This document shows, piece by piece, positions 32,272 through 58,801 of a stretch of 64,000 bases of DNA. The number at the start of each line of letters is the position of its first letter. Position 1 is the stretch's first letter. A program made the translations under genes and the position numbers. Origin of the DNA: Actinomycetota bacterium. GTDB taxonomy: Bacteria; Actinomycetota; Acidimicrobiia; Acidimicrobiales; Ilumatobacteraceae. The notes below the pieces were generated by a model. It saw nothing but the letters and a program-made list of their open reading frames with translations. It had not been told where the DNA came from and ran no database searches. The DNA is taken from contig JAYUWK010000133.1 in NCBI GenBank assembly GCA_043753895.1, positions 2,644 through 66,643 on the forward strand, written 5' to 3'.

Positions 32272-32654
32272 CGCGGGTACAGCCGACCTCGGCACGCTTG
32301 ATTGACCTGCGCCCACCGCTCGCCGCTCGAATCGACGACCTGTCGCGCAACGCTGCGGCCGCTGCACCGGGTCGCACCGGTGAGCTGGCGCGGGTTCGCG
32401 TGCGTCAGTTGCTCGGGGTCGGAGACGAGACCTTGCCCACCGATCTCGATCCCGCTGAACTCGCGGCGATGGCGGTCGTCGAACAATTCGTCATTGATGT
32501 ACACGGCCTCGACGATGCCACCTTCGCCGCACTCTGCGCGTACTACACGCCGGCCGAGCAGATGGGTCTGTTGTTCCATCTCGCGCTACTCGATGGGTTC
32601 ACTCGCCTACAGATCGTTGCTGGCGAGTCAATCGAAGAACAGGGACACCACTGA
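32268..32654 (+). CDS. CMD/AhpD-like helical domain protein lacking a CxxC motif
   Basis: The ATG overlaps the cyclase stop (ATGA). The C-terminal half (DDATFAALCAYYTPAEQMGLLFHLALLDGFTRL) looks like the helical CMD fold. Confidence 0.45.
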   Translation: MTRVQPTSARLIDLRPPLAARIDDLSRNAAAAAPGRTGELARVRVRQLLGVGDETLPTDLDPAELAAMAVVEQFVIDVHGLDDATFAALCAYYTPAEQMGLLFHLALLDGFTRLQIVAGESIEEQGHH

Positions 32655-33178
32655 TGGCTACCACGCCACGAATGCCGTCTGCCTTCGATGAGGAGACGCC
32701 GAGTTATGGCGGCATGTTGTCGCACCAGCCCGAACTCGTCGGCGCGTACGGCGTGCTCTATTCCGAGTTCTGGAGTCGCGGTGTTGTCGATCAGCCCACC
32801 AAGGAAGTGATCCGGCTGCGCAATGCGCGCATCACCGACTGCGGGTATTGACGCAATGTGCGCTTCGCGGTCGCGAGGCAGGAGGGACTCACCGAGGAAC
32901 TCGCCAACATGGTCGACGACAACTTCGAATCGAGTGAGCTCGAGCCTCGACACAAAGCGGCAGTGGTGTTCGCTGATGCTTACCTCGGCACCAACGGACC
33001 TCCCACCGGCGACGCACGGTCGTTCATCTCGGCGCACTTCGACGGTGATGAGATCGCCGAGATGGGTATCGGCATGGCCCTCTTCCATGGCTTCAGCAAG
33101 CTCCTCATTGCCGTTGGTGCCGAGCCAGAGGAGATGGACGTCACGATCTTGCGCACGCCGGGTTCGCCGCGCCCCTGA
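32654..33178 (+). CDS. Carboxymuconolactone decarboxylase (CMD)/AhpD-like protein with an in-frame TGA at 32849..32851, read as selenocysteine (C-G-Y-U motif)
   Basis: Track ORFs 32654..32851 and 32858..33178 are in the same frame and separated only by TGA-CGC-AAT. The joined reading is ...EVIRLRNARITDCGY[TGA]RNVRFAVARQEGLTEEL..., a full-length CMD domain. A hairpin starts 11 nt after the TGA. Confidence 0.6.
32862..32879 (+). promoter_or_regulatory. SECIS-like hairpin downstream of the TGA at 32849
   Basis: The hairpin is G-CUUCGC [GGUC] GCGAGG-C: 7 bp including one G-U pair, with apical loop GGUC. Confidence 0.5.
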
Positions 33179-33190
33179 CCGGACCCACCG

Positions 33191-33691
33191 ATGAGCACCG
33201 CACAGCCCGGACCCTGTTATGCGACCGGCCTGATCGTCGGCCGATTCAATCCACCGCACCTGGGTCATTCGTTCATGATCGAGTGGGCGGCACAACGCGC
33301 CGAGCGCCTCGTGGTGTTCGTGAATACGCGCGATGGCGAGTTGGTGCCCGGCGAGCTCCGCGCTGCATGGCTCGCCGATCTGCACTCGCACGTGACGGTG
33401 GTGGAGTTGCGTCATGACCTCGACAACGACTTTGCCGACGAGGAACTCTGGGCCAAGTGGATGGCGCTGTTCCGGTCGCGATGGCCGCACGAAATCGGGC
33501 CACATGCGGTGTTCAGTAGCGATCCCTACGTCAGCGAGCTCGCCGAGCGATTCGGCGCCGAACCCGTGGTGGTGGATGCGGATCGCACGGCTGTGCCCAT
33601 CAGCGCGACCCAGATACGCGAAGCGCCAGCCGACCACCTCGATCGGCTGGCGCCTGCAGTACGAGAGTGGGTTGAGTCGAACCTGTGCTGA
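33191..33691 (+). CDS. Nucleotidyltransferase of the cytidylyl/adenylyltransferase superfamily (NadR/NMN adenylyltransferase-like)
   Basis: It has the HxGH-type motif GLIVGRFNPPHLGHSFMI and a later ISATQIR (ISSTxxR-like) motif. Confidence 0.65.
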   Translation: MSTAQPGPCYATGLIVGRFNPPHLGHSFMIEWAAQRAERLVVFVNTRDGELVPGELRAAWLADLHSHVTVVELRHDLDNDFADEELWAKWMALFRSRWPHEIGPHAVFSSDPYVSELAERFGAEPVVVDADRTAVPISATQIREAPADHLDRLAPAVREWVESNLC

Positions 33692-33725
33692 GTGCCGTTG
33701 CGGGCATCGTTCAGCACCGTTGTGA

Positions 33726-34361
33726 TTACTTGCCGGGCTGGTGCAGCACGCGCAGGTAGGGCTTCACGGTAGTCCAGCCCTGCGGGAACAACTGCTTTGC
33801 CTCATCGTCGCTGACCGACCCGCCGATGATCACGTCGTCACCATCGGTCCAGTTGGCTGGCGTGGCGACTTTGTACTTGGCGGTGAGTTGCAGGCTGTCG
33901 ATGACCCGCAGGATCTCTTCGAAGTTGCGACCGGTAGAGGCCGGGTAGGTGATCTGCAGCTTGACCTTCTTGTCCGGCCCGATGACGAACACGGAGCGAA
34001 CCGTCATGGTGTCGCTGGCATTGGGGTGGATCATGTCGTACAGGTTGGCAACGGTCTTGTCGGTGTCGCCGATCATCGGAAAGTTCACGGGAGTGCCTTG
34101 AGTCTCGCCGATGTCGCTCTCCCACTTGAGGTGGCTCTCGACGGAATCGACCGACAGGCCGATGACCTTCACGTTGCGCTTATCGAACTCGGGCTTGATC
34201 TTGGCCACGTAGCCGAGCTCGGTGGTGCATACCGGCGTGAAGTCCTTGGGATGGCTGAACAGCACGCCCCAGCTGTCGCCGAGCCAGTCGTGGAAGTTGA
34301 TGTCGCCCTGCGTGGTGGCGGCGTTGAAGTTGGGTGCGGTATCGCCAAGACGAACGGTCAT
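33726..34361 (-). CDS. Peroxiredoxin, 1-Cys (Prx6-like) type
   Basis: The ATG at 34361 is preceded by AAGGAG. It has the motif WGVLFSHPKDFTPVCTTE, and its 211-aa length is typical for 1-Cys Prx. Confidence 0.9.
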   Translation of the reverse strand: MTVRLGDTAPNFNAATTQGDINFHDWLGDSWGVLFSHPKDFTPVCTTELGYVAKIKPEFDKRNVKVIGLSVDSVESHLKWESDIGETQGTPVNFPMIGDTDKTVANLYDMIHPNASDTMTVRSVFVIGPDKKVKLQITYPASTGRNFEEILRVIDSLQLTAKYKVATPANWTDGDDVIIGGSVSDDEAKQLFPQGWTTVKPYLRVLHQPGK

Positions 34362-34377
34362 GGTGGTTACTCCTTGT

Positions 34378-34409
34378 GAGATGGCATAGATGGGAGAGAT
34401 GGCATAGAT
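34378..34409 (-). promoter_or_regulatory. Two perfect 14-bp direct repeats just upstream of the peroxiredoxin RBS (candidate operator)
   Basis: gagatggcatagat occurs at 34378..34391 and again at 34396..34409, an 18-bp period. The repeats are AT-rich relative to their surroundings. Confidence 0.4.
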
Positions 34410-34555
34410 AGTTCTTGCTCGCACAGTATGCACCGATTCCCGATCAATCCACTCAAGAATTGGTCGGGCGGTGTTGACGCCGCGGATAGAGTGCTCTACG
34501 AGTCGGCTGACGATCGCGGGGAAGCGATCGTCCCTCGGGGCACTGGAGCAAGGCG

Positions 34556-35485
34556 ATGAGCATCAGACCGCACATCTACGAGATCTACATCAAAGCCACG
34601 CCGCAGCAGGTGTGGCAGGCGATCACCGATCCCGAATACACGAGCCGCTACTTCTACGGCACCCGCCTCGAGACCGATGGCGGCGTCGGCGACGGCTACC
34701 GCTATGTGGGAGACGATGGCGCCCCGGCGATCGAGGGCCTGATCGAAGCCACCGAGGTCGCCAAGCGCCTCGTGATGACCTTCCGGTTCGTGTACGAAAC
34801 AAGCCTGGCCGAAGAGCCGCCGAGCCGTGTGGAGTGGGTACTCACCCCGGCAGGCGAACTCACTCGGGTCACGCTGCGTCACGGCGACCTGTTGAAGAGC
34901 CCGCGCACGTGGGAGCACGTGCGCATGGGCTGGGTGGCCATTGTCGATGGCCTCAAGACGCTGCTCGAAACCGGCGAGAGCATGGGCGACATCGACGACC
35001 CCGAGGCAGCGAAACCTGCGGAGGATCCCGAAGGCGAGTGGCACCGTTCGCAGGGCGTCACGGCGAACAACGGCACGTGGGAGTGGCTGCGCAAGCCCGA
35101 CGCCGAACGCACTGCCGACGACGAAGAGGCAATGACCCTGTCGGCGTACGCGGCCGCGTATCACTGGGCGCGTGCTGCACGACGCGTCCCCGAAAATGTG
35201 GCTCGTGCCGAATGGTTGATTTCACGGGTGTGGGCAGTGCGCGGCAACGGCGCGCTGGCGTTGCACCACGGCGATCGCTGCATGGCTGCGTGCTCAGCCG
35301 CGAACTTGGCCGACTTCGATCTGGCCTACGCGCACGAGGCTCGCGCCCGCGCGTTGGCATGCTTGGGTCGCACGGACGAAGCGGTTGCAGAACGCGCGCT
35401 CGCTGCTGCAGTGCCGATCGCCGACGCCGAGGACCGCCACATCGTCGTTGCCGACCTCGCCGCTGAGCTGTGGTTCGGAGTGTGA
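34556..35485 (+). CDS. SRPBCC (AHSA1/START-like) domain protein with a helical C-terminal extension
   Basis: The N-terminus IYEIYIKATPQQVWQAITDPEYTSRYFYG is typical of SRPBCC family proteins. The C-terminal ~150 aa are Ala-rich and helical. Confidence 0.6.
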   Translation: MSIRPHIYEIYIKATPQQVWQAITDPEYTSRYFYGTRLETDGGVGDGYRYVGDDGAPAIEGLIEATEVAKRLVMTFRFVYETSLAEEPPSRVEWVLTPAGELTRVTLRHGDLLKSPRTWEHVRMGWVAIVDGLKTLLETGESMGDIDDPEAAKPAEDPEGEWHRSQGVTANNGTWEWLRKPDAERTADDEEAMTLSAYAAAYHWARAARRVPENVARAEWLISRVWAVRGNGALALHHGDRCMAACSAANLADFDLAYAHEARARALACLGRTDEAVAERALAAAVPIADAEDRHIVVADLAAELWFGV

Positions 35486-36000
35486 ACCGGCCGATCACGA
35501 TCGTTGGTATCTGTGGCAGCCTGCAGGCCGGTTCGTCGAACCTCGCACTGTTGCACGACGCCGCAGCGCTGATGCCGATCCATGTCGACTTCACCTTCTT
35601 CGAGGGCCTCGGTGACATTCCTCACTTCAATCCCGATCACGAGGCCACTGGCGCGCCGGGTCAGGTGATCCAGCTTCGGGAAATGTTGCAAGCCGCTGAC
35701 GGAGTGATCATCGCCTCGCCGGAGTACGGCTTCTCGTTGCCGGGTTCGTTGAAGAACGCCATTGACTGGATCATCGGCACGGGCGAGCTGGCGGGCATGC
35801 CGGTTGCGGTCACGGCCTCAGTTGCCAGTGCCGGGCGCGGCCGACGCGGGCTGCAGGCGTTGCTCGTGCCCCTCGGTGCGGTGGGCGCCGTGGTGGTGGG
35901 GGGCGAGACGATCGTGCGCGGACCGGCCGCAGCCGATGCACTTGGCCGGCTCGTGGCAGCGCTCATCGCAGCGGTCGATGAACGGGCATTGGTCGAGTGA
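35482..36000 (+). CDS. NAD(P)H-dependent FMN reductase family protein
   Basis: It has ITIVGICGSLQAGSSN and IIASPEYGFSLPGSLKNAIDW. The GTG at 35482 overlaps the upstream stop (GTGA); an alternative GTG lies at 35470. Confidence 0.8.
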   Translation: MNRPITIVGICGSLQAGSSNLALLHDAAALMPIHVDFTFFEGLGDIPHFNPDHEATGAPGQVIQLREMLQAADGVIIASPEYGFSLPGSLKNAIDWIIGTGELAGMPVAVTASVASAGRGRRGLQALLVPLGAVGAVVVGGETIVRGPAAADALGRLVAALIAAVDERALVE

Positions 36001-36046
36001 ATCGCTGACCGAGTCAGCCCTTGACGTCGTGTCCTAGAGTCTGCCC

Positions 36047-36385
36047 ATGAGCGTTGTGGTCACCCTTGCCGATCTTCCCGTCGCGATCGATGTGCAGATC
36101 GGATGGTGTTATCTCCTCACCGTGTCCGACGACGCCGAGGCCCGCGTCGTTGCCATCGCCCCGGTCTGGGATCATACGGGTACCTACCTCCACGCAGAGG
36201 TGGGGCGACGTACGGCCGCCAACGTGGCCTTGCATCCGAAGGTCTCACTCGTGTGGCCGCCGGCCGCAGCCGATGGATACAGCCTCATCGCCGATGGCGT
36301 CGCTGCCGTCGATGGCACCATTGTTCGGTTCGAGCCGATGAGTGCGGTACTCCACCGCCCAGCGGTGCAGGCACCACAGTCGTGA
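36047..36385 (+). CDS. Small hypothetical protein, possibly PPOX-like split barrel
   Basis: It is 112 aa and its stop overlaps the next gene's GTG. There is only a weak family resemblance. Confidence 0.35.
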   Translation: MSVVVTLADLPVAIDVQIGWCYLLTVSDDAEARVVAIAPVWDHTGTYLHAEVGRRTAANVALHPKVSLVWPPAAADGYSLIADGVAAVDGTIVRFEPMSAVLHRPAVQAPQS

Positions 36386-37032
36386 ACGACGAACAACTCT
36401 CGGCCGCCCTGGCCGACGAGCGTCTCGCCTTGGCCGACCTGCTCGAATCGCTGTCGTCCGAGCAACTGCGAGTCTGGTCGTTGTGCGCCGATTGGCGTGT
36501 ACACGACCTTGCCGCCCATCTCACGGCGCTGTTCAACGTCTCGATGCCATCGTTGCTGATGCGGGTCGTGAGAAATGGATTCTCTGTCACCAAGTCGTCG
36601 AAACAGATCACTGCCGAGTTGGCCGCGCGGCCCATCGCCGAGATCGCTCAGCAGCTACGCGACAACGCGTCGAATCGGAAGCACCCTCCCACGCTGGCAA
36701 TGGCGCCGCTGGCCGAAGTCATCGTGCACGGCGAGGACATCCGCCGTCCGCTCGGCATCACGCGCGAGATCCCCTTCGAGCGTGTCTCGGCAGTAATGGA
36801 TTTCATCACGGGAGGCCGCGCAATCGGCTTCCTGCCGGCATCACGAATTCGCGGACTGCGGTTCACTGCCACCGATGGCGACGGTATTTGGGGCAGCGGT
36901 CAGATCGTGCATGGCCCTGCGCTGAGCCTGCTGATGGGCGCGATGGGTCGACGGGTTGCGTTCGCCGACCTGGGCGGCTCGGTCGAGGTGTTGTCCACTC
37001 GGCTGCAGGGCAAAGTGAAGCGCATCGAGTAG
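36382..37032 (+). CDS. DinB-fold, mycothiol-dependent maleylpyruvate isomerase-family (TIGR03083-like) protein
   Basis: The N-terminus LADERLALADLLESLSSEQLRVWSLCADWRVHDLAAHL is typical of this actinobacterial family. It has a GTGA overlap with the upstream gene. Confidence 0.65.
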   Translation: MNDEQLSAALADERLALADLLESLSSEQLRVWSLCADWRVHDLAAHLTALFNVSMPSLLMRVVRNGFSVTKSSKQITAELAARPIAEIAQQLRDNASNRKHPPTLAMAPLAEVIVHGEDIRRPLGITREIPFERVSAVMDFITGGRAIGFLPASRIRGLRFTATDGDGIWGSGQIVHGPALSLLMGAMGRRVAFADLGGSVEVLSTRLQGKVKRIE

Positions 37033-37062
37033 TCAGCGCAACCGCACCACCGCGAGGTCAGC

Positions 37063-37542
37063 TCAGAGGTACTGCTCCAATTGGGAGGCAATTTCGTCCG
37101 GGGTGACCATGGGGCTGAACCGGGCCACTACGGCACCTGAGCGATCGATCAGGAACTTCTCGAAGTTCCATGTGATGCTGTTCGTTTCAGCCACTCCGGG
37201 CTGTTCGGTCCGGAGCCATTGATAGAGCTCGCAGGCACCGTCGCCATTCACCTCGATCTTGGAAAAGATCGGGAAATTGGCGTCGTATTTCGATGTGGCG
37301 AACTCGAGGATCTCTGCGTCGGTTCCGGGCTCTTGTGCGCCGAATTGATTACACGGGAACGCAAGCACCGTGAAGCCGCGAGCGGCGAAGTCCTGCTGGA
37401 GCGTACGCAGACCTGCGTACTGAGGCGTGAGGCCTCAAGCGCTCGCAACGTTGACGATGAGAACCACCTGATCGCGGAACCGGTCGAGTGCAACCGGATC
37501 ACCACCGATCGAGGTCATGGCGAGGTCATACAGATGTGACAT
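37063..37542 (-). CDS. Glutathione peroxidase with an in-frame TGA at 37435..37437 at the peroxidatic position, read as selenocysteine
   Basis: Track ORF 37063..37368 and the tail of ORF 37435..37980 share a frame. The joined reading is [35 protein letters not shown][TGA][37 protein letters not shown]...WNFEKFLI. This is the complete GPx fold with the TGA where Cys/Sec sits in NVASxCGxT. Confidence 0.7.
37403..37420 (-). promoter_or_regulatory. SECIS-like hairpin downstream of the GPx TGA
   Basis: On the minus strand it reads GUACGCA [GGUC] UGCGUAC, a perfect 7-bp stem with a GGUC loop, starting 14 nt after the UGA. Confidence 0.6.
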
Positions 37543-37567
37543 GGGCACCAAGGTAGTACGTGTGGCC

Positions 37568-38536
37568 TCAGCGTGTCGGCCCGATCGCACATTCGAACGT
37601 GATCGAACGGCTATGGGGGACGAACCCGATCGCGCCGTACAGCCGGTGAGCGCCCGTCGGGCTGTCGCTGTCGACGTCGAGCGCAGCGTGAGTGAGGCCG
37701 ATCTCGCGATACCGGTGCAACGCGGTGAGGATGAGCGCACTCGCGATACCCCTCCCGCGCCACTCATCGAGTGTGCCGACTTTGTCGATGTATCCCTGGG
37801 CGTACCCGAGCACGGCGTCGTCGGCTTCGTAGCGGTAGCTGAGCAGCATCGCGACGATCGTGTTGTTGCAGTCCACCGCAACGAACGACAGATCGGTGCG
37901 CGCGCCGAAGCCCTCGGTGGTCTGTCGCCAGACCTCGTCGCTTGCCGGCGTGGAACCCCAATGGCTTGCAAACGATGCATTCTTCACGTCCTTGATCTCA
38001 CTCGAGCGCTCTGTGGGCCAGGCAATGATGCTGATATCAGCAATGTTCGGAATGGGGCCGATCTCTGCGAGAGCGATCACGAGTTCGTCGAAGTATCGGA
38101 CCGGGCTGAGGCCGCACCTCGCCATCAGTCGGTGTGCATCAGCGACCCCCTCAAGCGCTTGGGTGCGGATGAACTTGGGCAGTGTGTTGGTGCCAGAGTT
38201 CAACATGGCGTCTGCTCGAGCCATGCCCCATGCCATCAGCTCGCGCCCAATGTTGCGACCGCGGTACTTGGGGTGCACCGTGCCGAACACATAGCAACGT
38301 TCCTGGACGACCTCCGACGGCAGGTACTGAGCCCATGCGGCACCGACCAGCGTGGCGTTCACGAATGCGCCACGCGTGTCGGTGGCGGGGTCCAGCGCGG
38401 GCGGGCTGAGCTCCTCACGAACTTCGTCGACATCCATCACCATCTGCAGGCCGTCGAAGTCGTTGCCAGTGTTGATCAGCGCACAGACGGCCTGCATGTC
38501 GTCGGGCTCGAGTGGGCGGAACAGGGTGTTGTCCAT
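37568..38536 (-). CDS. Tandem-GNAT N-acetyltransferase (MshD-like two-domain architecture)
   Basis: It has two acetyl-CoA-binding motifs (YRGRNIGRELMAWG and WRGRGIASALILTAL) in a 322-aa protein. Confidence 0.65.
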   Translation of the reverse strand: MDNTLFRPLEPDDMQAVCALINTGNDFDGLQMVMDVDEVREELSPPALDPATDTRGAFVNATLVGAAWAQYLPSEVVQERCYVFGTVHPKYRGRNIGRELMAWGMARADAMLNSGTNTLPKFIRTQALEGVADAHRLMARCGLSPVRYFDELVIALAEIGPIPNIADISIIAWPTERSSEIKDVKNASFASHWGSTPASDEVWRQTTEGFGARTDLSFVAVDCNNTIVAMLLSYRYEADDAVLGYAQGYIDKVGTLDEWRGRGIASALILTALHRYREIGLTHAALDVDSDSPTGAHRLYGAIGFVPHSRSITFECAIGPTR

Positions 38537-38539
38537 GCG

Positions 38540-39661
38540 TCAGGCTGGCACTGTGTTGCGTGACCATCTGGCGATGCTGGCGCGCACGCCTCGTCGAAAC
38601 GGGTCCTCGACCAATCGGTAGGAGACCACTGTCGCGGCTGCTGTCAATGTCAGCTGCGCTGCGGTCAGCCACCACCTGTCGAGCCCGCTGCTCTCACGCG
38701 TGACGAGCGCAATAATCGGCCAGTGCCACAAGTACAGGCTGTAACACCGCGTGCCGAGCCAGCGCAGCGGTGCCCAAGCGAGCACGCCTGCGGCCCCGCC
38801 GCCGCGAACTGCCGCAGCGACGATAGCCGTCGTTGCAAGCCCGGTCGCGAACATTCCGCCGTCTGCGATGAAGCGCGAAGCCTCGTCATCAAGCGTGAGC
38901 GACAGCACTGCGATGGCCCCCAGACTCGTCGCGGCAATGAAGTTGAGCACCGAGCGCGCCCATTCGCTCGACCACAGAGCCGGTCGCGCGGCGAGGAGGA
39001 TGGCAAGCGCGCTGCCGGCGAGCAGCTCGGCCCCGCGGACCCCGGTGTTGTAGTAGACGTCGGTGGTGCTGCCCCAATCGAGGCGTGTGATTGCCAGCCC
39101 ATAGATTGCGCCGAGACCGGCCAGCCCGCACGCGACCATCCCGACAGTTCGAAGGGGGCGGCGCGCAAATCTGAGCGTGACCACGGTGATGATCGGCCAC
39201 AACACGTAAAACTGCTCCTCGACAGAAAGGCTCCACAAATGCTGGAAGGGTGACACTCTTCCGGAGAACTCAGACCAGTAGTCGACGGAGTGGGCGAGTT
39301 GCCACCAGTTATTCGAGTAGAGCAACGACGACATGACGGCGCCGCGATCAGACGCTTCCCAGGTGCCGCCGGCGACCAAGAGTGCTACCACGACGAGCAA
39401 CATCACGTAGTGCGCTGGCAAGAGGCGCCGGCCGCGCCGCACCCAGAACCGACCCAGACCGACCCGCCCGCCGGTACTGATCCGTTCGTTGAGGATCAGT
39501 CGGGTCATCAAGAAGCCCGAAAGCGGGAAGAACACACTCATACCCACCCAGCCGCCCGGCATCTGATGCGGGCGCAGGTGAAGCCACACCACCAACGCGA
39601 CGGCGATGCCGCGGATGCCATCGAGGGCCGGTACTTGAGCGCTGCGCGGCGGGGTATACAT
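38540..39661 (-). CDS. Acyltransferase-3 (AT3, OafA/YrhL-like) integral membrane acyltransferase without its own SGNH domain
   Basis: The reading starts at MYTPPRSAQVPALDGIRGIAVALVVWLHL, the AT3 N-terminal motif. About 10 helices follow, and the protein ends after the membrane domain. Confidence 0.75.
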   Translation of the reverse strand: MYTPPRSAQVPALDGIRGIAVALVVWLHLRPHQMPGGWVGMSVFFPLSGFLMTRLILNERISTGGRVGLGRFWVRRGRRLLPAHYVMLLVVVALLVAGGTWEASDRGAVMSSLLYSNNWWQLAHSVDYWSEFSGRVSPFQHLWSLSVEEQFYVLWPIITVVTLRFARRPLRTVGMVACGLAGLGAIYGLAITRLDWGSTTDVYYNTGVRGAELLAGSALAILLAARPALWSSEWARSVLNFIAATSLGAIAVLSLTLDDEASRFIADGGMFATGLATTAIVAAAVRGGGAAGVLAWAPLRWLGTRCYSLYLWHWPIIALVTRESSGLDRWWLTAAQLTLTAAATVVSYRLVEDPFRRGVRASIARWSRNTVPA

Positions 39662-39684
39662 CGTCGTCGCGGCTGCTGTTTGGC

Positions 39685-42141: not shown

Positions 42142-42350
42142 AGAGTTTAGCCCATCGTTCTATTTCGCTCCACAGCACGCGCGCACGGAGCGTTGCGCCG
42201 TGCCCGTCGCACAAAGCACCGTACTTGACCGACAGGCGACATGCCGTGCGTGAGGTGATTGACGGCGTGACGGGGGCGACGCGTGAACTGGCATATCATC
42301 TGCCACTAGTTTGTGTGCGTCAATCCGCACAGCAAAGGGACCCCGTCACC

Positions 42351-42986: not shown

Positions 42987-43097
42987 TCAGCGTGAGCCGG
43001 CCACCGGTGCTGTCGTAGGGACGAACGACCCTGTTCGGCGCTACCGCGCGGCGCGACAATCGCACGATGGAGTCCTGAACCGAAGGTTGGTAGCCGA

Positions 43098-46872: not shown

Positions 46873-46904
46873 GTCTGTTCTCCATTCGCGATCGTTCGAT
46901 GAAC

Positions 46905-48277
46905 TCACACCGACCGTAATCGGGATGACCCCCGGGTGCCGCACTGCGCATAGCGATGCGACGTACTCAGGCCTCGTGAGTTGGTTCTGTCGTTGAGTTT
47001 CCAGGGGCGCGACGGTCGAGGCTCCTGGGCCGTGACTTGTGTGGTCACCTCGGCCGTCTCCATGTTCAGATGGCCCCGCTGGGTCGAGAACCAGCGCACA
47101 TATCGATTCGTGAGCGGCGACGCAGTGATGCCGTGCGCGAAGACGCTGAGCAGCGCGGTGAACGTGGCGACCTGCACGATGCGTGGCGTACCGTGCAGTC
47201 CCGATTCCTCGACAATGGTGAGCATGAACACGATTGTGGCAAGACCGCGTGGCCCGAACCATCCGGCGAATGCCATCGTGGGGCGCGCCGCGCCACTGCC
47301 GACGAGCGCGATGGCTACAGGAAGGATGCGCACGACGGTGAGGCTGAGTACGGCGTACAACACGGTTGCGAGATCGAGATGTGGAATGGCGTCAGCGATC
47401 ACGAGGGCACCGAACACGAAGAAGGTGCACGCGCTGAGCACCTGACCCACTTCTTCCGAAAAGGCTGTGTTCTCGTGGGCGTGTCGGCCCACGATGCGGC
47501 CATAGAGCAACCCGGCGACGAAGCACGCGATGAAACCGCTGCCGCCGAGCTTGTCAGTTGCCACGTACGCCAGCGCCGCAGATGCCGGCGGCACGACCTG
47601 TTGCCAGTGTTGCTCCATCCAGCCGCGCCGTGTCGCGTGCACGAGAATGGCCCCGCTGATCAAAGCAACGACAACGCCTACGACCGTGGCGATGCCCACC
47701 TCTTTGACGAGATCAATGACGATCTGGCCATCGAAGCTCGGCCGCTGCTCAAGCTCGGCCATCGCCAAGTCGGCGAACAACAGCGGCACGCAGATGCCGT
47801 CGTTCAGCCCACTCTCTACGTTCAGTCCTTGGCGGATGGGTGAGGGCAACCGCTGATCAGACACGACTGCTTGGCCGAGCGCAGCGTCGGTGGGCGCCAG
47901 CAGTACCGCCAAGATCAGTGCCTCGAACACCCCGAGTCCCGAAAACAACGGCACGCGACGACTGTGCCGAGGATGATGGTCAGGGGCAGGCCAAGAGCGA
48001 GAAGGCGCACTGGCACCGATGATTCGCGGACGAGCGCGCGTGTGTCGAGATCGGCTGCGTCGGTGAACAGCACGAGCGCGAGCGTGGCCTCGGCCAACAG
48101 GCGAATGCCAACTGGAGTGAGGCCGGTGCGTAACGCATCGAGCCCGTTGGTGCCGAGCACGTAGCCCAAGACAACGGAGACCATCGCCGCGGTGACGACG
48201 GTGCCCTTGAGCCGACGCGAGAACGCCGCGTATCCGATGAGGATTGCCGCAGTGAGTGCAATTGTCCAGCCGCCCAT
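46905..48277 (-). pseudogene. Cation:proton antiporter (CPA1, Na+/H+ exchanger-like) split by a frameshift near 47925..47955
   Basis: The N-terminal 120-aa ORF (48277..47915) and the 349-aa ORF (47954..46905) are consecutive parts of one antiporter (..LPLTIILGTVVA | VPLFSGLGVFEALILAVLLAPTDAA..) in different frames. Confidence 0.6.
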
Positions 48278-48303
48278 GAGTCAGCTGCCGACGATCCAGG
48301 CCG

Positions 48304-49850: not shown

Positions 49851-49939
49851 GGTCACGCTCGTGTACTTTGGGTTACAGGCAAACTATACGTGGGTCTCGA
49901 AAATCCCCGCAATCGCTGGCAGCGACGGCTCCGCTTCGC

Positions 49940-50143
49940 TCAGTCGACCAACCGGGTGATGTCGATCAGATCGAGGCCGAGGTCGCTGATCACGGCGAGC
50001 ACTCCGTGGAGTTCGGCCTGATCGCGAACATGGCCACGAAGTGTCGATGCATCGACGACCGCCATGGGCGAAAGGGCGGCGACGAGACGCGGGCCGACGC
50101 CCGGGGCGATGTGAATCTCGTACATGCCTCCATGGTCGGTCAT
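49940..50143 (-). CDS. Small hypothetical protein
   Basis: It is 61-67 aa. MYEIHIAPGVGPRL...DQAELHGVLAVISDLGLDLIDITRL resembles a small actinobacterial family with a C-terminal LHG..R.RDLGL motif, recalled from memory only. Confidence 0.35.
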   Translation of the reverse strand: MTDHGGMYEIHIAPGVGPRLVAALSPMAVVDASTLRGHVRDQAELHGVLAVISDLGLDLIDITRLVD

Positions 50144-50365
50144 CTGTGCATCTCATCGCAGTTCTTCGAATCGGGCATCACCCCGTCAGGGTGGTCTTCG
50201 AGTGAGCGAACCGCGAGCCAAGAGCGATCGTGAGTGGCAGTAGTTCTGCGCCCTGCAGGGCACGTGCACACTGCCAGATCGACCAAGCCGGCGACTTCGT
50301 CGAATCCGCGGGCAGGAACGCAGCTCGGGGGTTTCAGCGGCCTTGGTTGCGGGTATGAGTGATGC

Positions 50366-51820: not shown

Positions 51821-51861
51821 GTGCGGCGTTGAAGTAGGCGCGGCGGTGAGATAAACGCGCG

Positions 51862-53571
51862 TCAGGCGCCGAGGATCTCTGCACGCAACTCGCGTTTGAG
51901 GAACTTGCCATTGGCGTTGCGCGGAATCGGGTCGTTGCGGAACCAGATCTGCGCGGGGATCTTGTATTTGGCGAGGCTGGCCGAAAGGAATTCGCGAAGC
52001 TCGTCGTCGGTGAGCTCGTGCCCCGGCTTGAGCACGATGACAGCGGCGACGTCTTCGCCGAGCCGATCGTCGGGCACGCCGAATACGGCCGCTTCGGCGA
52101 TGGCATCGTGGTGGTAGATAGCACTTTCGACCTCGCTGCAGTACACGTTCTCGCCGCCGCGCAGCACCATGTCCTTGGCACGGTCGACCAGGAAGACGAA
52201 GCCATCTTCGTCGATGCGCGCGATGTCGCCGGTGTTCAGCCATCCATCGCGAATCGCGTCGGCGGTGGCCTCTGGTCTGTTGAGGTAGCCCTTGATGACC
52301 ACTGCGCCGCGCACGCACAACACGCCGATCGCATTGGGATCGGCCGCGATGTCGTTGCCGTCTTCGTCGACGAGTTTGGTCTCCAACGTGGGGACGGCGG
52401 GACCGCACGATGACGGCTTGTTCACGAACCAGCGACCCGCGTTGGCCGTGATGATGCCGTGCGTTTCGGTCATGCCGTATCCGGTAGAGGGCGCACTCGA
52501 CGACACGGCACCCGCGATCTTGTTCACCAGGTCGGGCTGCAACGCCGCGCCGCCACCGCCGAGGCCCTGCAGCGACGATGTGTCGCGCGTGGCCCAATCG
52601 GGATGCATCAGCAACTCGCGACTCATTGTCGGTACTCCCGAGAAGTTGGTGACCTGCTCGCGCTCGATGAGCTCGAGCGCGCGACCCGGATCCCATTTGC
52701 GGGTGAGCACGATCTTCGCGCCAGACAGCGTGGCCGGATGCAGCAGGCAGTTGCAGGCAGTCACGTGGAACAGCGGCGTGGGCGCCATGAACACTGGAGG
52801 GCGGGGAGCGGTAGGCGCCTTCGGCGGAAGGTCACCTGCATCCACGGCCTTCTGCTCGCCGGCCGCCGCAATGGTGGTCATCGCCATCAGGTTGAGGATG
52901 TTGGCCACGGAGCCGCGATGGGTGAGCTGAGCGCCCTTGGGGAAGCCGGTGGTGCCCGAGGTGTAGAAGATGGTTGCGTCGTCGTCGGGGTCGATGTCGC
53001 ACTCGGGGAGTGAGCCCGGATCGTCGCCGGCCATGACATCGGCCCAGTGCACACCGGTCTCGGGAATGGTGTGGTCGCTGCGAACGGAGATCACGTGCAT
53101 GGGACGCTGGGCCGGCATGTGCTCTAGGCGTTGCAGGCGTTCGTCGTCGGCGATGAGGACCCGTGGTTCGCTGTCGTTGAGGGCGTATTCCATCTCCGGT
53201 GGGGTCCACCACGCATTCATGCCGACCACGGCCGCGCCGACGCTGATCGTGGCCCAGTAGGCAACGACCCACTCTGGATAGTTACGCATCGCAATTGCGA
53301 CCCGGGAATGACGAGTGACGCCGTGGGAGATGAGGTGATGGGCGAGCTTGCGGACCTGTGCGTGGACCTCGGCGTAGGTGTAGCGCTCGTCTTCGTAGAC
53401 GATGTAGTCCTTGTCGGCGTGGCCTGTCGTTGACTCCCAAAGCAGGCGCATGTGCGGTGGCATGTTGGCGAAGGTTCGGATCGAGGTTCCGCGTACGTCG
53501 ATGTTGGTGGTGGCGAATGGCGCGCCGGGCGCGGTGAGTTCGGCCCGGGCGGCGAGGTAGTGGTGAATCAC
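51862..53571 (-). CDS. AMP-dependent acyl-CoA synthetase/ligase
   Basis: It has YTSGTTGFPKGA, GYGMTET and GDIARIDEDGFVFLVDRAKD. The frame stays open upstream into the DUF389 remnant. The first in-frame start inside the ligase N-terminus is GTG 53571, so the start is uncertain. Confidence 0.75.
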   Translation of the reverse strand: MIHHYLAARAELTAPGAPFATTNIDVRGTSIRTFANMPPHMRLLWESTTGHADKDYIVYEDERYTYAEVHAQVRKLAHHLISHGVTRHSRVAIAMRNYPEWVVAYWATISVGAAVVGMNAWWTPPEMEYALNDSEPRVLIADDERLQRLEHMPAQRPMHVISVRSDHTIPETGVHWADVMAGDDPGSLPECDIDPDDDATIFYTSGTTGFPKGAQLTHRGSVANILNLMAMTTIAAAGEQKAVDAGDLPPKAPTAPRPPVFMAPTPLFHVTACNCLLHPATLSGAKIVLTRKWDPGRALELIEREQVTNFSGVPTMSRELLMHPDWATRDTSSLQGLGGGGAALQPDLVNKIAGAVSSSAPSTGYGMTETHGIITANAGRWFVNKPSSCGPAVPTLETKLVDEDGNDIAADPNAIGVLCVRGAVVIKGYLNRPEATADAIRDGWLNTGDIARIDEDGFVFLVDRAKDMVLRGGENVYCSEVESAIYHHDAIAEAAVFGVPDDRLGEDVAAVIVLKPGHELTDDELREFLSASLAKYKIPAQIWFRNDPIPRNANGKFLKRELRAEILGA

Positions 53572-54469
53572 ACTTCTGATTGTTGTCGCGACAGCGGTGG
53601 GTTCGGCAATCGGAGAGGTTCCAGGCAGCGATGCTGCGGTGCCGTCCAGCGCAACCACGGTCTTGGGTATGAACTCGATCACGACATTGCTCGGATCCAC
53701 TCCGCCGGTCTTCAGTGCTGTGGCGAGACCTGTCGTATCCGGCAGCGGCGGCGGGCCGATCACGCGCACAGTGATCTTGGTGTTATCGGTGTTCACATCG
53801 AGGAAGTCCCACCCGACTCCACGCGCCCACGTATCGGTGATGCGGCGCACATTGCGCTCGCGAGTGCTGTTCTGGGCGATCTTGGCCGTCGAGATGGTCA
53901 GCGGCACCGCGATCGCGACGAGCAGCGCAACGACGACGACGACAGCGTTGCGTCGGTTGACCGGGCGGTGTTTGCCGTTCGAGGTGGGCTCGACCATCCG
54001 GTGCACCTTGTAGAGCCCCATCACGATGATGCCTGTGGTGAGGATCGCTGCGACGTTGGTGCCGAACAACAGCAGCGCGCCGACCGATTGCTTGAACTCG
54101 CCGGCCTCTGCAGTGAGACCCACGACTGCGAGCGGCGACGACGTCGTTGGCGACCATGAGGCCGATGAGAAAGCCGACGCCGATCGCAGCAGCCGCCCCG
54201 CTTGCGACCAGCGCGATCGAGCGCAACAGGTTGGTCCTGTCGCCGAGCACGACGGCGAGCATGGTGCCCAGGATCGGTGTCATGAGCGGAGCCACGATCA
54301 TGGCTCCGATGACGGTGGCCGTGGAATCGCCGCCGACGCCGGCCGATGCGATGATCGACTCAAGGGTCAGCAGGATCCATAACCGGCTCAGCCGTCGGCC
54401 GAGGTCGGGGCCGTCGAAGAACACCGAGTTACGCATGTGGTCCAGGTCGTTGAGCGCCAAGTTCGGCAT
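53572..54469 (-). pseudogene. DUF389-family membrane protein disrupted by an internal deletion/frameshift near 54120..54150
   Basis: The N-part (from ATG 54469) reads ..SIIASAGVGGDSTATVIGAMIVAPLMTPILG..GFLIGLMVANDVV. The C-part, in another frame, reads SPLAVVGLTAEAGEFKQSVGALLLFGTNVAAIL... About 55 aa expected between them are missing. Confidence 0.5.
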
Positions 54470-54666
54470 CGTTGTCACTGTCCCCGTTCTGGTGATGGGG
54501 TCCCTGACGATAGTCATTCCGCGATGAGTGGGGTTCCCCCGATTCGGGTGATCTGCGAGTCGGACGCGGCGCTCGGTGACGACGTCGCGCTTGCACGGCC
54601 AGCGTTTTGCAGGCAGTCTGCACGGGGTGAAGGATTTCGATGAGACCGAGATGAGGATGACGGACC

Positions 54667-55608
54667 ATGGCTGAGCATCGACCGTTGCGGTGGGGTGTGC
54701 TGGGCGCCAGCAGTCGCATTTTCGAACGGAGTCTGCGCCCAGCCTTCGACGCGTGCGGACAACAGATCGTGGCGGTTGCGAGCCGAGACGGTGTCTCATT
54801 CCAGCCATACATCGAGCTGCTCGCTCGTGACGATGTTGATGCGGTCTACAACCCGCTCCCCAATCATCTGCACGCTGAGTGGAGCCACCGCGCGCTGGAC
54901 GCCGGGAAGCACGTGTTGTGCGAGAAGCCGCTCACGCTCGACCCTGCAGACTCCGCATCGCTCTTCGATCACGCCGAGGCTGCCGACGTGGTGCTGCTCG
55001 AGGCCTATGTCTGGCCGCATCACCCTCGGGCGCAGCGCCTGCTCAATCTGGTGCTCGCTGGCGAGGTGGGTGAACCGCTCTGGGGGAGTGCTCGTTTCAG
55101 TTGGCCGATGGATCTTGCCGGTGGCGACCATCGCCTCGACGAACGCGGCGCAGGCGCACTGTTCGATGTTGGTATCTACTGCATTGCGCCCTTCATGTTG
55201 ATGGCGCAGCGGTCACCCGTTGTCGTGGCAGCGAATGCCGTGCGCAATGACGTGGGGGTCGACCTCTCGATGAGCGGATGGATCGATTGGGGAGCCGGCT
55301 TTGGCACCGCGTTCGCTGTGTCGTTCGATGCGCCCCCCGTTCGGGACATGACGCTCACCTGTAGCGACGCCGCGGTGATAGTGCCCGGCTGGCACACCCC
55401 CGGATCCTTGGACGCGAGCGAGTTGCAGATCATTCGCCGCGACGGCTCGGTCGAAGAGATCACCTGTGCAGGAGGCGATGCCTACGCCGGTATGGTGCAA
55501 CACTTTGCCGACGTCGTCGACGGTCGCACCTCAGCGATCTTCGGGCGTGCCGAGAGCATGCGTCTCGCCCATGTCCTGCACGATCTCCGGCTCGCCAGCG
55601 CTCGCTGA
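54667..55608 (+). CDS. Gfo/Idh/MocA family NAD(P)-dependent oxidoreductase
   Basis: It has LRWGVLGASSRIFERS, NPLPNHLH and GKHVLCEKPL. Confidence 0.8.
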   Translation: MAEHRPLRWGVLGASSRIFERSLRPAFDACGQQIVAVASRDGVSFQPYIELLARDDVDAVYNPLPNHLHAEWSHRALDAGKHVLCEKPLTLDPADSASLFDHAEAADVVLLEAYVWPHHPRAQRLLNLVLAGEVGEPLWGSARFSWPMDLAGGDHRLDERGAGALFDVGIYCIAPFMLMAQRSPVVVAANAVRNDVGVDLSMSGWIDWGAGFGTAFAVSFDAPPVRDMTLTCSDAAVIVPGWHTPGSLDASELQIIRRDGSVEEITCAGGDAYAGMVQHFADVVDGRTSAIFGRAESMRLAHVLHDLRLASAR

Positions 55609-55663
55609 GGCCACCAATCGCCTGCAGCCCTGAGAAATGCAGGCCCCGAGTCGAAGGACAATC

Positions 55664-56437
55664 GTGACCACCAACTACGCAACGTACCCATCACTCGTCG
55701 AGCGAGGCGTCTTCATCACCGGCGGCGCCGCAGGTATCGGCAGCGCCATGGTCGAGCAGTTCGCCAGGCAAGGGAGCAAGGTGGCCTTCGTCGATCTCGA
55801 CGTCGATGGCGCGAACGTCACTATCGAGCGCTGCCAGGCTGCCGGGGTCGTCCACGTGCCGGTCTTCTTTCAGCTTGATCTCTTGGATATCGCTGCATTG
55901 CAACGTGCCTGCGCAGCCGCGATCGAGATGCTCGGGGGGATCAGCGTGCTCGTGAACAACGCAGCCAGCGATGACCGTCACGACTGGCGCAACGTGACCC
56001 CCGAGTATTTCGACAACCGCATCAACACCAACCTGCGCCACTACTTCTTCGCGATCCAGGCACTCGCTCCTTCGATGATTGCTGCGGGGCATGGGTCGAT
56101 TGTCAACATCGGATCGAGCAGCTACCTGATGCAGGAGGACATGTTCCCCGGATACGCGATTGCCAAGTCGGCCGTCGAGGGCATCACGCGAACGATGGCG
56201 CGAACCTTTGGTCCGCATGGCGTTCGCGTCAATACCGTCATGCCGGGTTGGGTGCCCACCGAACGACAGCTGACGCAATGGTGGACTCCCGACGGGGAGG
56301 CGGCCACGATGCGCGATCAGGCGATCAAGCGACGCATCACCCCCGACGAGTTCGCGCAGATGGTGCTCTTCCTCGCAGCCGACGATGGCGCTGCCTGCAC
56401 CGCCCAGCAGTTTCTCGTCGACGGCGGTCGCTTCTGA
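55664..56437 (+). CDS. Short-chain dehydrogenase/reductase (SDR)
   Basis: It has GVFITGGAAGIGSAM and NNAA, plus a catalytic-region YAIAKSAV. The GTG at 55664 is preceded by GAAGGA; an alternative ATG lies at 55637. Confidence 0.8.
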   Translation: MTTNYATYPSLVERGVFITGGAAGIGSAMVEQFARQGSKVAFVDLDVDGANVTIERCQAAGVVHVPVFFQLDLLDIAALQRACAAAIEMLGGISVLVNNAASDDRHDWRNVTPEYFDNRINTNLRHYFFAIQALAPSMIAAGHGSIVNIGSSSYLMQEDMFPGYAIAKSAVEGITRTMARTFGPHGVRVNTVMPGWVPTERQLTQWWTPDGEAATMRDQAIKRRITPDEFAQMVLFLAADDGAACTAQQFLVDGGRF

Positions 56438-56498
56438 GCGGTGGCGCCGTTGGTTCGGCGCCTGCACCTGCGCCGCATTCCCCGTTAATCCGCCTTGG

Positions 56499-56516
56499 TA
56501 TATCGAATACGATATA
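56499..56516 (+). promoter_or_regulatory. AT-rich perfect inverted repeat (7-4-7) immediately upstream of the XRE-family gene; candidate operator
   Basis: tatatcg-aata-cgatata lies 9 nt before the ATG at 56525 in an otherwise GC-rich context. Confidence 0.4.
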
Positions 56517-56524
56517 GTTATCGG

Positions 56525-57049
56525 ATGGACACGGCGGGGGTGGTGAGGGAGTTCAGAGGCCGACACGGCCTCTCTCAGACGACCCTCAGCAAACTGACGG
56601 GTATTCCGCAACCGGTGCTGTCGATGTATGAGCACGGCCGCCGCAGCCCCAGTATCGAGACGCTGGACCGCATCCTCGCAGTGGGTTCGGAGATGGTAGG
56701 AGTGTCACCCCGGCCATCTCGGCAGGACGACCGTTCGGTGTCGAAGACGATCGAGATTCACCGCATCGTTCTGGAGAGGTTTCTCGAGAGTCCCGACCAG
56801 GTGCTGGAACTCGGTCGCACTCGGTTGCGCGTTCTCGAACGATCGCTGAGCAAGCGGAGCTCGCCGTACCTCGCGACGTGGCGACGCCTGCTTGACGGGC
56901 CGCGTTCCGACATCGTCCGGCTTTTGCTGTCGACCGACGAGGACGACATCGAGCTGCTCAAGATGTCGCCGTTCACCACGCTGTTGAGCGATCAAGAGCG
57001 CCTCGAGGTGACTAGTCGTTCGAAGCTGCGGCGCGCTGGATCTCGATGA
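56525..57049 (+). CDS. XRE-family helix-turn-helix protein with a C-terminal helical domain (antitoxin-like)
   Basis: It has the HTH FRGRHGLSQTTLSKLTGIPQPVLSMYEHGRRSPSIETLDRIL. It sits directly upstream of a nucleotidyltransferase-like gene. Confidence 0.7.
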   Translation: MDTAGVVREFRGRHGLSQTTLSKLTGIPQPVLSMYEHGRRSPSIETLDRILAVGSEMVGVSPRPSRQDDRSVSKTIEIHRIVLERFLESPDQVLELGRTRLRVLERSLSKRSSPYLATWRRLLDGPRSDIVRLLLSTDEDDIELLKMSPFTTLLSDQERLEVTSRSKLRRAGSR

Positions 57050-57068
57050 ACAGGAGGGCCTGCATCGG

Positions 57069-57746
57069 ATGATTCGCGCTGTCGCCGCAATGCTCGGCGA
57101 GGAAACCGTGGTGATCATCGGCAGCCAGTCGATCCTCGCCTCGTTCCGCGAGTTCATACTTCCCGATGACGCAACGATGTCGGCCGAAGCGGACACCGTT
57201 CCCTTCGACGATGACGACGAGGCAAAGGCCGACAAGGTCGACGGCGTGCTCGGTGAAGCAAGCCACTTCTCCGAGAAGTACGGCATCTACGCTGCTGGTG
57301 TTTCGCCCTGGACCGCCCGTCTTCCGGCGGGCTGGGACGCTCGTCTGGTGCGGATCGAGGATCCCGAGGGTGGCGCTGTCGGCCTGTGCCTGCATCCCGA
57401 GGACCTGTGTGTAGCAAAAGTTCTGGCCGGCCGAGCAAAGGACATCCGATTCCTCGCTGCCGTGTTTCGGTCGGGCCTCGTGGACCCTGCCGCCGTATCT
57501 CGAAAGCTCACGACTGTCGCGCTTCGGCGGAGTGACGCGGAGGCCGTTCGACGAGCCCGAGCCTTTCTCGATGGTGTTCCACGCCTTGCCAAGTACGCCA
57601 AGGGACCACCACCGGCGACGCACGACATCTCGCGCGTCAGCGACAAGCTCGCGCGAATGCGGGACGCCTCCGTGTTGTGCGGCCGAACGAATAGCGATGG
57701 AACGCTCTGCCGGAACGACCGTCGTGAATGCGGAGATCATCGGTGA
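57069..57746 (+). CDS. Nucleotidyltransferase-like (DUF6036-type) protein with a C-terminal Cys/His-rich tail (toxin-like partner)
   Basis: It has VVIIGSQSILASF..., MSAEADTVPFDDDD, and DLCVAKVLAGRAKDIRF, which matches the KL.A.R.KD motif of this family. The tail is CGRTNSDGTLCRNDRRECGDH. Confidence 0.5.
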   Translation: MIRAVAAMLGEETVVIIGSQSILASFREFILPDDATMSAEADTVPFDDDDEAKADKVDGVLGEASHFSEKYGIYAAGVSPWTARLPAGWDARLVRIEDPEGGAVGLCLHPEDLCVAKVLAGRAKDIRFLAAVFRSGLVDPAAVSRKLTTVALRRSDAEAVRRARAFLDGVPRLAKYAKGPPPATHDISRVSDKLARMRDASVLCGRTNSDGTLCRNDRRECGDHR

Positions 57747-57805
57747 CTCTTGAGCGGTGGCCCCGTTGGTTTGACATCGTCGGCGAGTGACTCAATACTG
57801 GCTTG

Positions 57806-58801
57806 ATGTCCCTGACCGCGATCCGGCCCGACCTCGTGGCCGCGCAGGCCGAAGCGTGGCGCCGAGTCACGATGCCCGGTGCGTCGTTGACCGGTGCCGA
57901 ACGGGCGGCGATCGCACAGTTGGCATTGGCCGCGCTCGACGATCCCGAACCACTTGCACCGTGGGTGTTGCCCTCGCAGGCCGGACGCGAGATCCCCGTG
58001 TGTGCAGCAGTGTTGTCAGCGGACGTTCGCGATGCGGTGTATCGAATCGCACGTCATGCAGCGACCCTGACCGAGGGTTGGTACGACACGCTCATTGCGA
58101 GCGGCATCGACCCGTTCGCCTACGTAGAGATGGTTGGCGTGATCGCGGCGGTCGTTGCGGTCGACGGGTTCTTCCGCGCGTCGGGTCTCGAGCGACCACC
58201 ATTGCCGAACACCGTTGATGGAGCACCGCACGGCCAACATCCGCAGGTGGAACCTGCCACGTTGAACTGGGTGCCGGTTGCTGTGCCCGCCGATGCAGTC
58301 GCTGCGGTCGTGCAGGGTCTCAGTGCCTCGCCCGAGGAGATGGATACGGTTCGCCTCCTCGCTGCGGCTCAATACATCCCCTTCGATTCGATGGGCGAAC
58401 TCGGTTGGAGCCGGGGCACCCTCAGCCGTGGCGAGATGGAACTCGTCGCCGCGCGCCTGTCTCGGGCGCGCGAGTGTTTCTATTGAACGACGTCTCACGA
58501 GATGATGCTCCGTGCGAGCATCCCCGCTGATGAATCCGACACCCGTCGGGCAGTGTTGGAAGATTTCGTCGCCGCAGTGGTCGGCCACGATCCAGCCAGT
58601 GCCGATGCCGCTCGGGCAATGGTCGTGGACCAACTCGGTCCCGATTGGTTGATCGACGCATCAGCCGTGGTGGCCAACTTCGAGATGATGACCCGACTGG
58701 CAGATGGCACCGGCGCACGTCTGCGCCCAGCGCAGATGGAAGCCACGGTCGCGCTGCGAGAGCAGTTGGGTGTCGACGCGTTCCCATCCGCCCGTCGGTG
58801 A
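57806..58801 (+). CDS. CMD/AhpD-like protein with an in-frame TGA at 58484..58486, read as selenocysteine (C-F-Y-U-x3-H motif)
   Basis: Track ORFs 57803..58486 and 58502..58801 are in the same frame. The joined reading is ...LVAARLSRARECFY[TGA]TTSHEMMLRAS..., which reproduces the AhpD-core CxxCxxxH pattern with the second Cys replaced by TGA. A hairpin starts 17 nt after the TGA. Confidence 0.6.
58504..58522 (+). promoter_or_regulatory. SECIS-like hairpin downstream of the TGA at 58484
   Basis: GAUGCUC [CGUGC] GAGCAUC is a perfect 7-bp stem with a 5-nt loop containing G-U. Confidence 0.5.

Follow-up and report, generated by a model that had tools for sequence, protein, structure and literature searches.

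Glutathione peroxidases (GPx) and AhpD-like proteins with a CxxU motif, in which U stands for selenocysteine (Sec), have been known as prokaryotic selenoprotein families since the Sargasso and Global Ocean Sampling surveys, and both figure again in a 2026 review (PMC2398784, PMC13188914). Bacterial GPX-like selenoproteins have a UxxT motif, as in Treponema denticola (PMC1794560, PMC13188914). The Actinobacteria are among the three phyla that are richest in selenoprotein families (Zhang et al. 2006, PMC1794560) and, in another order of the Acidimicrobiia, selA, selC, selD and a divergent selB are reported for all 84 complete Actinomarina genomes in a 2026 preprint (10.64898/2026.04.03.716425). 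No selenoproteins of non-marine Acidimicrobiia were found in the literature searched. The DNA considered here is a stretch of 64,000 nucleotides from a member of the Ilumatobacteraceae (assembly GCA_043753895.1, contig JAYUWK010000133.1), which is referred to as the window. It contains three genes, designated A, B and C, that are each interrupted by an in-frame TGA followed by a short hairpin, and these are, with a probability of roughly 0.9 as judged from sequence comparisons, genuine bacterial selenoprotein genes, in which the in-frame UGA is decoded as Sec with the help of a selenocysteine insertion sequence (SECIS) in the coding region downstream. An earlier note on this DNA had considered Sec use to be uncommon in such genomes, an opinion that does not agree with the reports on Actinobacteria and Actinomarina just cited.

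The sites were located by a scan for a TGA with a hairpin, followed by translation across the TGA. The hairpin design required a stem of 7 bp or more and a loop of 4-5 nt with GU at positions 2-3, the loop starting 15-26 nt downstream of the TGA. This explicit scan takes the place of a covariance model, for which three hairpins of 18-19 nt from unrelated coding contexts hold too little information. On both strands of the window and in any frame, this design follows 9 of 1766 TGA trinucleotides. Only three of these nine are in frame within a supported gene, i.e., those of genes A, B and C, and the scan of the window revealed no further candidate with the design and an in-frame TGA in a supported gene. 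Screens for extra in-frame TGAs that were based on the G+C content of third codon positions were rejected as non-discriminating at 64% G+C; antisense frames scored high too, and genes B and C themselves were missed. The G+C content is 63-65% throughout the window. TGA is the stop codon of 31 of the 36 supported open reading frames (ORFs) in the window, with genes A, B and C all included, which excludes a reassigned code.

Gene A starts with an ATG at 32654 and stops at 33176-33178, and its TGA lies within the sequence ITDCGY-U-RNVRF (...RNARITDCGY-U-RNVRFAVARQ...). The product is a marginal match to Pfam CMD (PF02627; 26.6 bits, cutoff 23), and it scores below the cutoffs of NF053654 (30.2 vs. 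310 bits), NF041047 (25.5 vs. 110 bits) and TIGR01926 (24.3 vs. 81.8 bits). A protein search with gene A returned two types of relatives, i.e., full-length proteins of ~170 residues with the motif DCGYC and fragments of ~106 residues that begin two codons past the TGA position. The U of gene A aligns with the Cys of the DCGYC homologues, and the region 3' of the TGA is in frame and conserved in Sec and Cys forms alike. On related contigs, the gene is called as an ORF of 65 residues plus one of 89 or 106 residues. In a scan with a single genome for each species, 80 loci were obtained; the codon at the site is TGA in 27 of them and TGC or TGT in 47. The TGA forms, the best of which shows 88% identity, were found mostly in metagenome-assembled genomes (MAGs) from lakes and similar habitats that are labelled Actinomycetes, Acidimicrobiaceae, Ilumatobacteraceae or Acidimicrobiia. 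Among the 80 loci, the Sec forms are confined to uncultured MAGs, mostly of freshwater Acidimicrobiia.

The hairpin of gene A has a perfect 7-bp stem that begins 10 nt past the UGA; without the outer G-C pair, the distance is 11 nt. At least six of its seven pairs can be formed in 26 of the 27 TGA forms vs. one of the 47 Cys-codon forms (Fisher p ~1e-17, uncorrected for shared ancestry). Over the 27 distinct Sec-form sequences, 96.8% of the cells are paired. One pair shows a compensatory change from G-C to A-U in seven of these sequences, and this switch costs two amino-acid changes, from FAVA to FTVV. At two pairs of the stem, some Sec forms have U-A and others U-G. In the same forms, the hairpin codons are without synonymous variation (CGC in 25/25, TTC in 25/25 and GTC in 23/25), whereas the flanking codons vary freely and the codons at the hairpin positions vary in the Cys forms. 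The loop is GGUC in 25 of the 27 Sec forms and AGUU in one more. The peptide encoded over the hairpin is FAVA or FTVV in Sec forms vs. FAGA, FEGA and similar sequences in Cys forms. Together, the frozen codons, the conserved pairing and the co-occurrence with TGA are what characterizes a functional RNA element that is tied to the UGA.

A member of the gene A family was also found in a gammaproteobacterial MAG of the Halieaceae (L093:10157-10207). Here, the codon at the site is TGA too, but the hairpin is another one, in which a GUG loop caps a stem of 8 bp (CUUCGCCG/CGGCGAAG). This may be an independent SECIS solution.

Gene B is a GPx gene on the reverse strand. It starts with an ATG at 37542 and stops at 37065-37063, with the TGA at 37437-37435 within NVASA-U-GLTPQY (...VVLIVNVASA-U-GLTPQYAGLR...). 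The product matches Pfam GSHPx (PF00255) with E = 2.8e-40 (136.7 bits, cutoff 27), and its alignment with yeast HYR1 (3cmi; E = 6.6e-44) covers the full length, with U opposite the Cys of NVASKCGFT. The Cys of FPCNQF is kept as well and is also aligned with yeast HYR1. The HYR1 residues opposite U and the FPCNQF Cys are its peroxidatic and its resolving Cys, respectively. The hairpin of gene B has a perfect 7-bp stem that begins 14 nt past the UGA. Besides the syntenic MAGs, a Myxococcota MAG and contigs of Acidimicrobiales with 66-75% identity at the protein level have the TGA together with CAGUACGCAGGUCUGCGUACG. TGA and hairpin are kept across relatives at 66% to 86% protein identity. Across the lineages examined, the hairpin differs only by a single wobble change and a single A.C mismatch, while flanking synonymous sites do vary. 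The GGUC loop was found in all GPx Sec forms examined. Approximately 80 of the best 120 GPx protein matches are fragments of 100-126 residues that start past the Sec site; several of them are named Acidimicrobiales, and the window's own fragment (P0033) is among them.

The Myxococcota relative, a Sec-GPx from another phylum (MAG GCA_047639255.1, L181:1390-1863), has an identical CAGUACGCAGGUCUGCGUACG hairpin; this suggests that the gene has moved horizontally along with its SECIS or that conservation is extreme. Three full-length GPx homologues from the Joint Genome Institute (JGI; P0156, P0159 and P0035) have a W at the Sec position (NVASAWGLT); presumably, the gene caller has read the TGA as Trp, one more way for these selenoproteins to be mis-annotated.

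Gene C starts with a TTG at 57803 or an ATG at 57806, stops at 58799-58801 and reads ...SRARECFY-U-TTSHEMMLRAS... around its TGA. It matches the NCBIfam family NF041238, AhpD_rel_CFYUT "(seleno)protein", with 259.7 bits (cutoff 175) over profile positions 1-356 of 357, and it carries the CFYUT motif after which this family is named (ECFY-U-T). According to Pfam, it also has a CMD (AhpD-fold) domain. In alignments with AhpD-like PDB chains, U takes the place of the second Cys of CxxC, in the context CxxUxxxH. Of the 80 relatives that a metagenome scan yielded (36-83% identity; soil, freshwater and marine samples), 78 have the TGA within E/Q-C-x-x-U. The hairpin has a perfect 7-bp stem that begins 17 nt past the UGA. 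Its inner five pairs (U-G-C-U-C with G-A-G-C-A/G) are formed in 62 of 62 distinct sequences, with wobble changes only, and its outer 2 bp are specific to the window's lineage. The loop is CGUGC, or AGUUG in combination with a change of the peptide from RA to SW; at loop position 2 (column 32), the G never varies, and at position 3 (column 33), the U hardly does. A second G+C-rich hairpin, CGGCGG-GUCAG-CCGCCG, is located 13 nt past the true stop of gene C, at 58815-58831, between two convergent genes. As no coding frame follows it, this hairpin resembles a terminator more than a SECIS.

In the earlier note, three TGA codons at redox-active Cys positions had been proposed, and in all three genes U indeed aligns with a Cys of homologues, i.e., of DCGYC proteins for gene A, of HYR1 for gene B and of CxxC proteins for gene C. 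The Pfam and NCBIfam profile matches of the products run across the UGA. The coordinates, motifs, stems and loops (GGUC, GGUC and CGUGC) were all found as described, with perfect stems of 7 bp. A comparison with related genomes, which the note had called for, revealed Cys homologues and conservation of TGA and hairpin together across dozens of relatives, and the expected fragmentation by gene callers is real (65 plus 89 or 106 residues for A, and 35 plus 102 for B). The idea of one hairpin design holds only loosely. A G+C-rich stem and a loop with GU at positions 2-3 are common to all three, but the GGUC tetraloop is shared by A and B only, and C has a pentaloop on a conserved core of 5 bp. 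The spacing of 11, 14 and 17 nt, in steps of one codon, proved to result from where the stem ends had been set; the distance from UGA to loop is 17, 21 and 24 nt in A, B and C, respectively. According to a bSECISearch-type criterion, the stem-loop of a bacterial SECIS lies inside the coding sequence and has its apical loop ~16-37 nt past the UGA, and all three loops fall within this distance. The G and the U of the loop are the contacts of SelB in Escherichia coli and Moorella, and the GU that is common to the three hairpins and their variants would fit such a role.

Could the TGA codons simply be real stops? In that case, we would be dealing with pseudogenes, nonsense alleles or sequencing errors, and with hairpins that are there by accident. 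A single base change suffices to convert TGC into TGA, gene callers report two fragments per gene, and hairpins A (z = 0.12) and C (z = -0.66) do not fold better than their dinucleotide shuffles. A significant fold energy was obtained for hairpin B (z = -3.2). However, the genuine SECIS of E. coli fdhF, which served as the control, reached a z of only -1.6; thus, fold energy is a weak test, and it was not used as evidence. On the other hand, 27 gene A relatives, ~78 gene C relatives and the distinct GPx lineages examined all have the same TGA, in independent assemblies and metagenomes. Furthermore, the downstream parts are in frame, conserved as protein and similar to Cys homologues, the nucleotides of the hairpins are constrained beyond coding needs, and gene C matches a curated selenoprotein family. 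The conservation effectively refutes real stops, and this explanation has next to no probability. Alternatively, the UGA might be read without Sec, as Trp, Cys or Gly, by a suppressor tRNA, by hairpin-stimulated near-cognate decoding or in an altered code. The W at the GPx site in the JGI gene calls would be in line with this, although it is most simply a gene-caller effect, and so would the search for the Sec machinery: tRNA-Sec, selA, selB and selD were not found in the 64-kb window, which contains no tRNA at all, and no Sec machinery was found with tblastn and ARAGORN in 1.8 Mb of related loci (176 sequences). The tblastn probes were E. coli SelA, SelB and SelD sequences, and they gave only weak matches to GTPase domains, adjoining Cys-form loci. 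Yet, the use of TGA as the regular stop codon in the window shows that the code is not reassigned, and the recoded sites are the exact catalytic Cys/Sec positions of families that use Sec (PMC13188914). Moreover, the apex of the GPx hairpin is the SelB-binding apex of E. coli fdhF, and a Trp at the peroxidatic position would inactivate the enzyme. Decoding without Sec is very unlikely.

Apart from the fold energies of A and C and the outcome of the search for Sec machinery, three further observations weigh against Sec decoding of the three genes. No match was obtained in a scan of the window with Rfam gathering cutoffs; bacterial SECIS elements are poorly covered in Rfam (10.64898/2026.04.03.716425). 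A double compensatory change was not seen in hairpin C among the 62 distinct sequences, and its support consists, therefore, of invariance and pairing, not of covariation. Finally, a close relative of gene B on an 801-nt ENA contig (P0048, L180:49-519) has TGT at the site with the hairpin intact. At the nucleotide level, this closest Cys-form GPx is ~81% identical in the first 330 nt, and ~40 bases flanking the hairpin are identical. Either Sec was recently replaced by Cys in this copy and the SECIS has stayed as a relic, or a base was miscalled. Thus, the hairpin alone does not prove current use of Sec in a given copy. A different question is whether Sec insertion is real but the drawn hairpins are not one common element, with a SECIS that differs by gene or extends past the drawn stems. 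Gene C, with only its inner 5 bp conserved and CGUGC or AGUUG as the pentaloop, the different hairpin of the Halieaceae form and the unequal loop spacing all point in this direction. Still, the three are all G+C-rich stems capped by a GU loop at a distance near the 18 nt of fdhF, and A and B have the exact GGUC tetraloop in common. We consider the lack of a common element rather unlikely, and such a reading is a refinement of the explanation by Sec decoding, not a replacement.

If the three genes are indeed selenoprotein genes, the in-frame UGA of each would be decoded as Sec, and the stem-loop 3' of it, a bacterial SECIS within the coding region, would recruit SelB.GTP.Sec-tRNA(Sec) to the ribosome, with SelB recognizing the apical loop via the GU at positions 2-3. 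The products would be thiol/selenol enzymes in the defense against peroxides. Gene B may encode a 2-Cys-type GPx with Sec as the peroxidatic residue and the FPCNQF Cys as the resolving one, whilst genes A and C would encode CxxU proteins of the AhpD fold, with Sec in place of the second Cys of the CxxC redox pair. SelB dependence, incorporation of selenium and the enzymology of the three products are what we infer from their sequences.

The features are listed in Table 1. Genes A and B are located 4.6 kb apart within one conserved island, so that two selenoprotein genes would be combined there. The order of the island is kept in the related MAG loci L008, L009 and L012-L015. Syntenic loci are present in several MAGs and metagenomes, e.g., GCA_025360105.1 and GCA_031367435.1, where gene A is called as 65 plus 106 residues and the GPx gene as 35 plus 102; genes A and B are split by the gene callers in every related locus examined. 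The ORF of 128 residues upstream of gene A (32268-32654) had appeared CMD-like by eye, but this was rejected, as it has no Pfam match and no similarity to gene A. Genes of the window include the one for the mycothiol-type MDMPI_N domain protein and others that are typical of actinobacteria.

Table 1. Positions in the window of genes A, B and C, their putative Sec codons and hairpins, and the gene island.
Feature	Position	Strand	Support or content
Gene A, CMD/AhpD-like, CxxU motif DCGY-U, 174 residues	32654..33178	+	Pfam CMD; DCGYC homologues
Putative Sec codon (UGA) of gene A	32849..32851	+	TGA in 27 relatives, TGC/TGT in 47
SECIS-like hairpin of gene A, GCUUCGC-GGUC-GCGAGGC	32862..32879	+	Pairing kept across Sec forms
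Gene B, glutathione peroxidase, 159 residues, U at peroxidatic position, Cys in FPCNQF	37063..37542	-	Pfam GSHPx; HYR1
Putative Sec codon (UGA) of gene B	37435..37437	-	TGA kept in syntenic MAGs, divergent Acidimicrobiales and Myxococcota
SECIS-like hairpin of gene B, GUACGCA-GGUC-UGCGUAC	37403..37420	-	Near-invariant; apex as in fdhF
Gene C, AhpD-related, ~332 residues, motif ECFY-U-TTSH	57803..58801	+	NF041238
Putative Sec codon (UGA) of gene C	58484..58486	+	TGA in 78/80 metagenomic relatives
SECIS-like hairpin of gene C, GAUGCUC-CGUGC-GAGCAUC	58504..58522 (conserved core 58506-58520)	+	Inner 5 bp paired
Gene island with genes A and B	28813-37542		Adenylate cyclase-AAA-TPR protein; 128-residue ORF of no family; gene A; cytidylyltransferase-like protein; 1-Cys peroxiredoxin (-); AHSA1; FMN reductase; 112-residue ORF; MDMPI_N protein; Sec-GPx (-)

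Two other loci in the window deserve mention. At 46905-48277 on the reverse strand, a Na+/H+ exchanger gene is apparently split by a frameshift. Its N-terminal, membrane-like part is encoded by the ORF 48277..47915 and the rest, in another frame, by the ORF 47954..46905, which matches Pfam Na_H_Exchanger at profile positions 98-374; either the assembly is wrong here or the gene is a pseudogene. At 61-2754 on the forward strand, an open frame that is cut by the start of the window encodes an MFS_1 domain followed by two ABC_tran ATPase domains, a fusion that would be unusual if real.

The chances are about even that gene A, placed in an antioxidant island, stands for an AhpD-like CxxU subfamily (DCGY-U-RNVRF[AT]V[AV]) without a curated model, in which the SECIS dictates the protein sequence, and that it forms, together with gene C, part of a sizeable selenoproteome of abundant lake and groundwater Acidimicrobiia that is systematically split or missed in the current annotation of MAGs. 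In this organism and its many MAG relatives, the annotation shows these antioxidant enzymes as two short pieces each or as 'hypothetical', and metabolic and stress-response inferences for widespread freshwater and groundwater Actinomycetota consequently miss these enzymes. In re-annotation, a UGA with a hairpin of this kind should be treated as Sec. Dependence of the peroxide defense on selenium, if true, would tie these bacteria to the availability of selenium. The genes would also offer evolutionary examples of a SECIS that constrains the protein (gene A), of a SECIS that is invariant across phyla (GPx) and of what is likely a recent Sec-to-Cys switch with a relic hairpin.

Compared with described systems, genes A, B and C all belong to known selenoprotein families, and the result is a correction of the annotation with a textbook bacterial mechanism. 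Modestly new are the lineage, the absence of a specific model for gene A and the island with two selenoprotein genes. Gene C is a member of the AhpD_rel_CFYUT family (NF041238) and does not differ from it in anything of substance. Gene A resembles the AhpD-like CxxU selenoproteins (AhpD-like 1/2, of the TIGR01926 or PF02627 type) in its CMD signature, its CxxU motif and its CxxC homologues. It differs from them in that it scores below all specific NCBIfam models and has Arg, not His, four residues past U, and it possibly represents an AhpD-like subfamily without any curated specific model. Gene B shares the GSHPx domain and the peroxidatic U followed by GxT with Sec glutathione peroxidases, i.e., the bacterial GPX-like UxxT proteins such as that of T. 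denticola and eukaryotic GPX4. Unlike these, it keeps the FPCNQF Cys aligned with HYR1, which suggests a resolving mechanism of the thioredoxin type instead of one with glutathione, and its lineage is Acidimicrobiia-like.

The hairpins can be compared with the experimentally defined SECIS of fdhF, which reads UGA CAC GGC CCA UCG GUU GCA GGU CUG CAC C in the genome record of E. coli K-12. Like the hairpins of genes A, B and C, it is located within the coding sequence directly past the UGA, and its loop starts at 18 nt, as compared with 17, 21 and 24 nt in A, B and C, respectively. The apex of the gene B hairpin, GCAGGUCUGC (GCA-GGUC-UGC, 10 nt), is identical to that of the fdhF SECIS, and the loop of gene A, GGUC, is the fdhF tetraloop. 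In contrast to fdhF, the stems of all three are perfect, without a bulged U, a conserved extended lower helix is absent, and gene C has a pentaloop. Thus, hairpins A and B are of the fdhF type, whereas C is a variant with a pentaloop and fewer conserved stem pairs.

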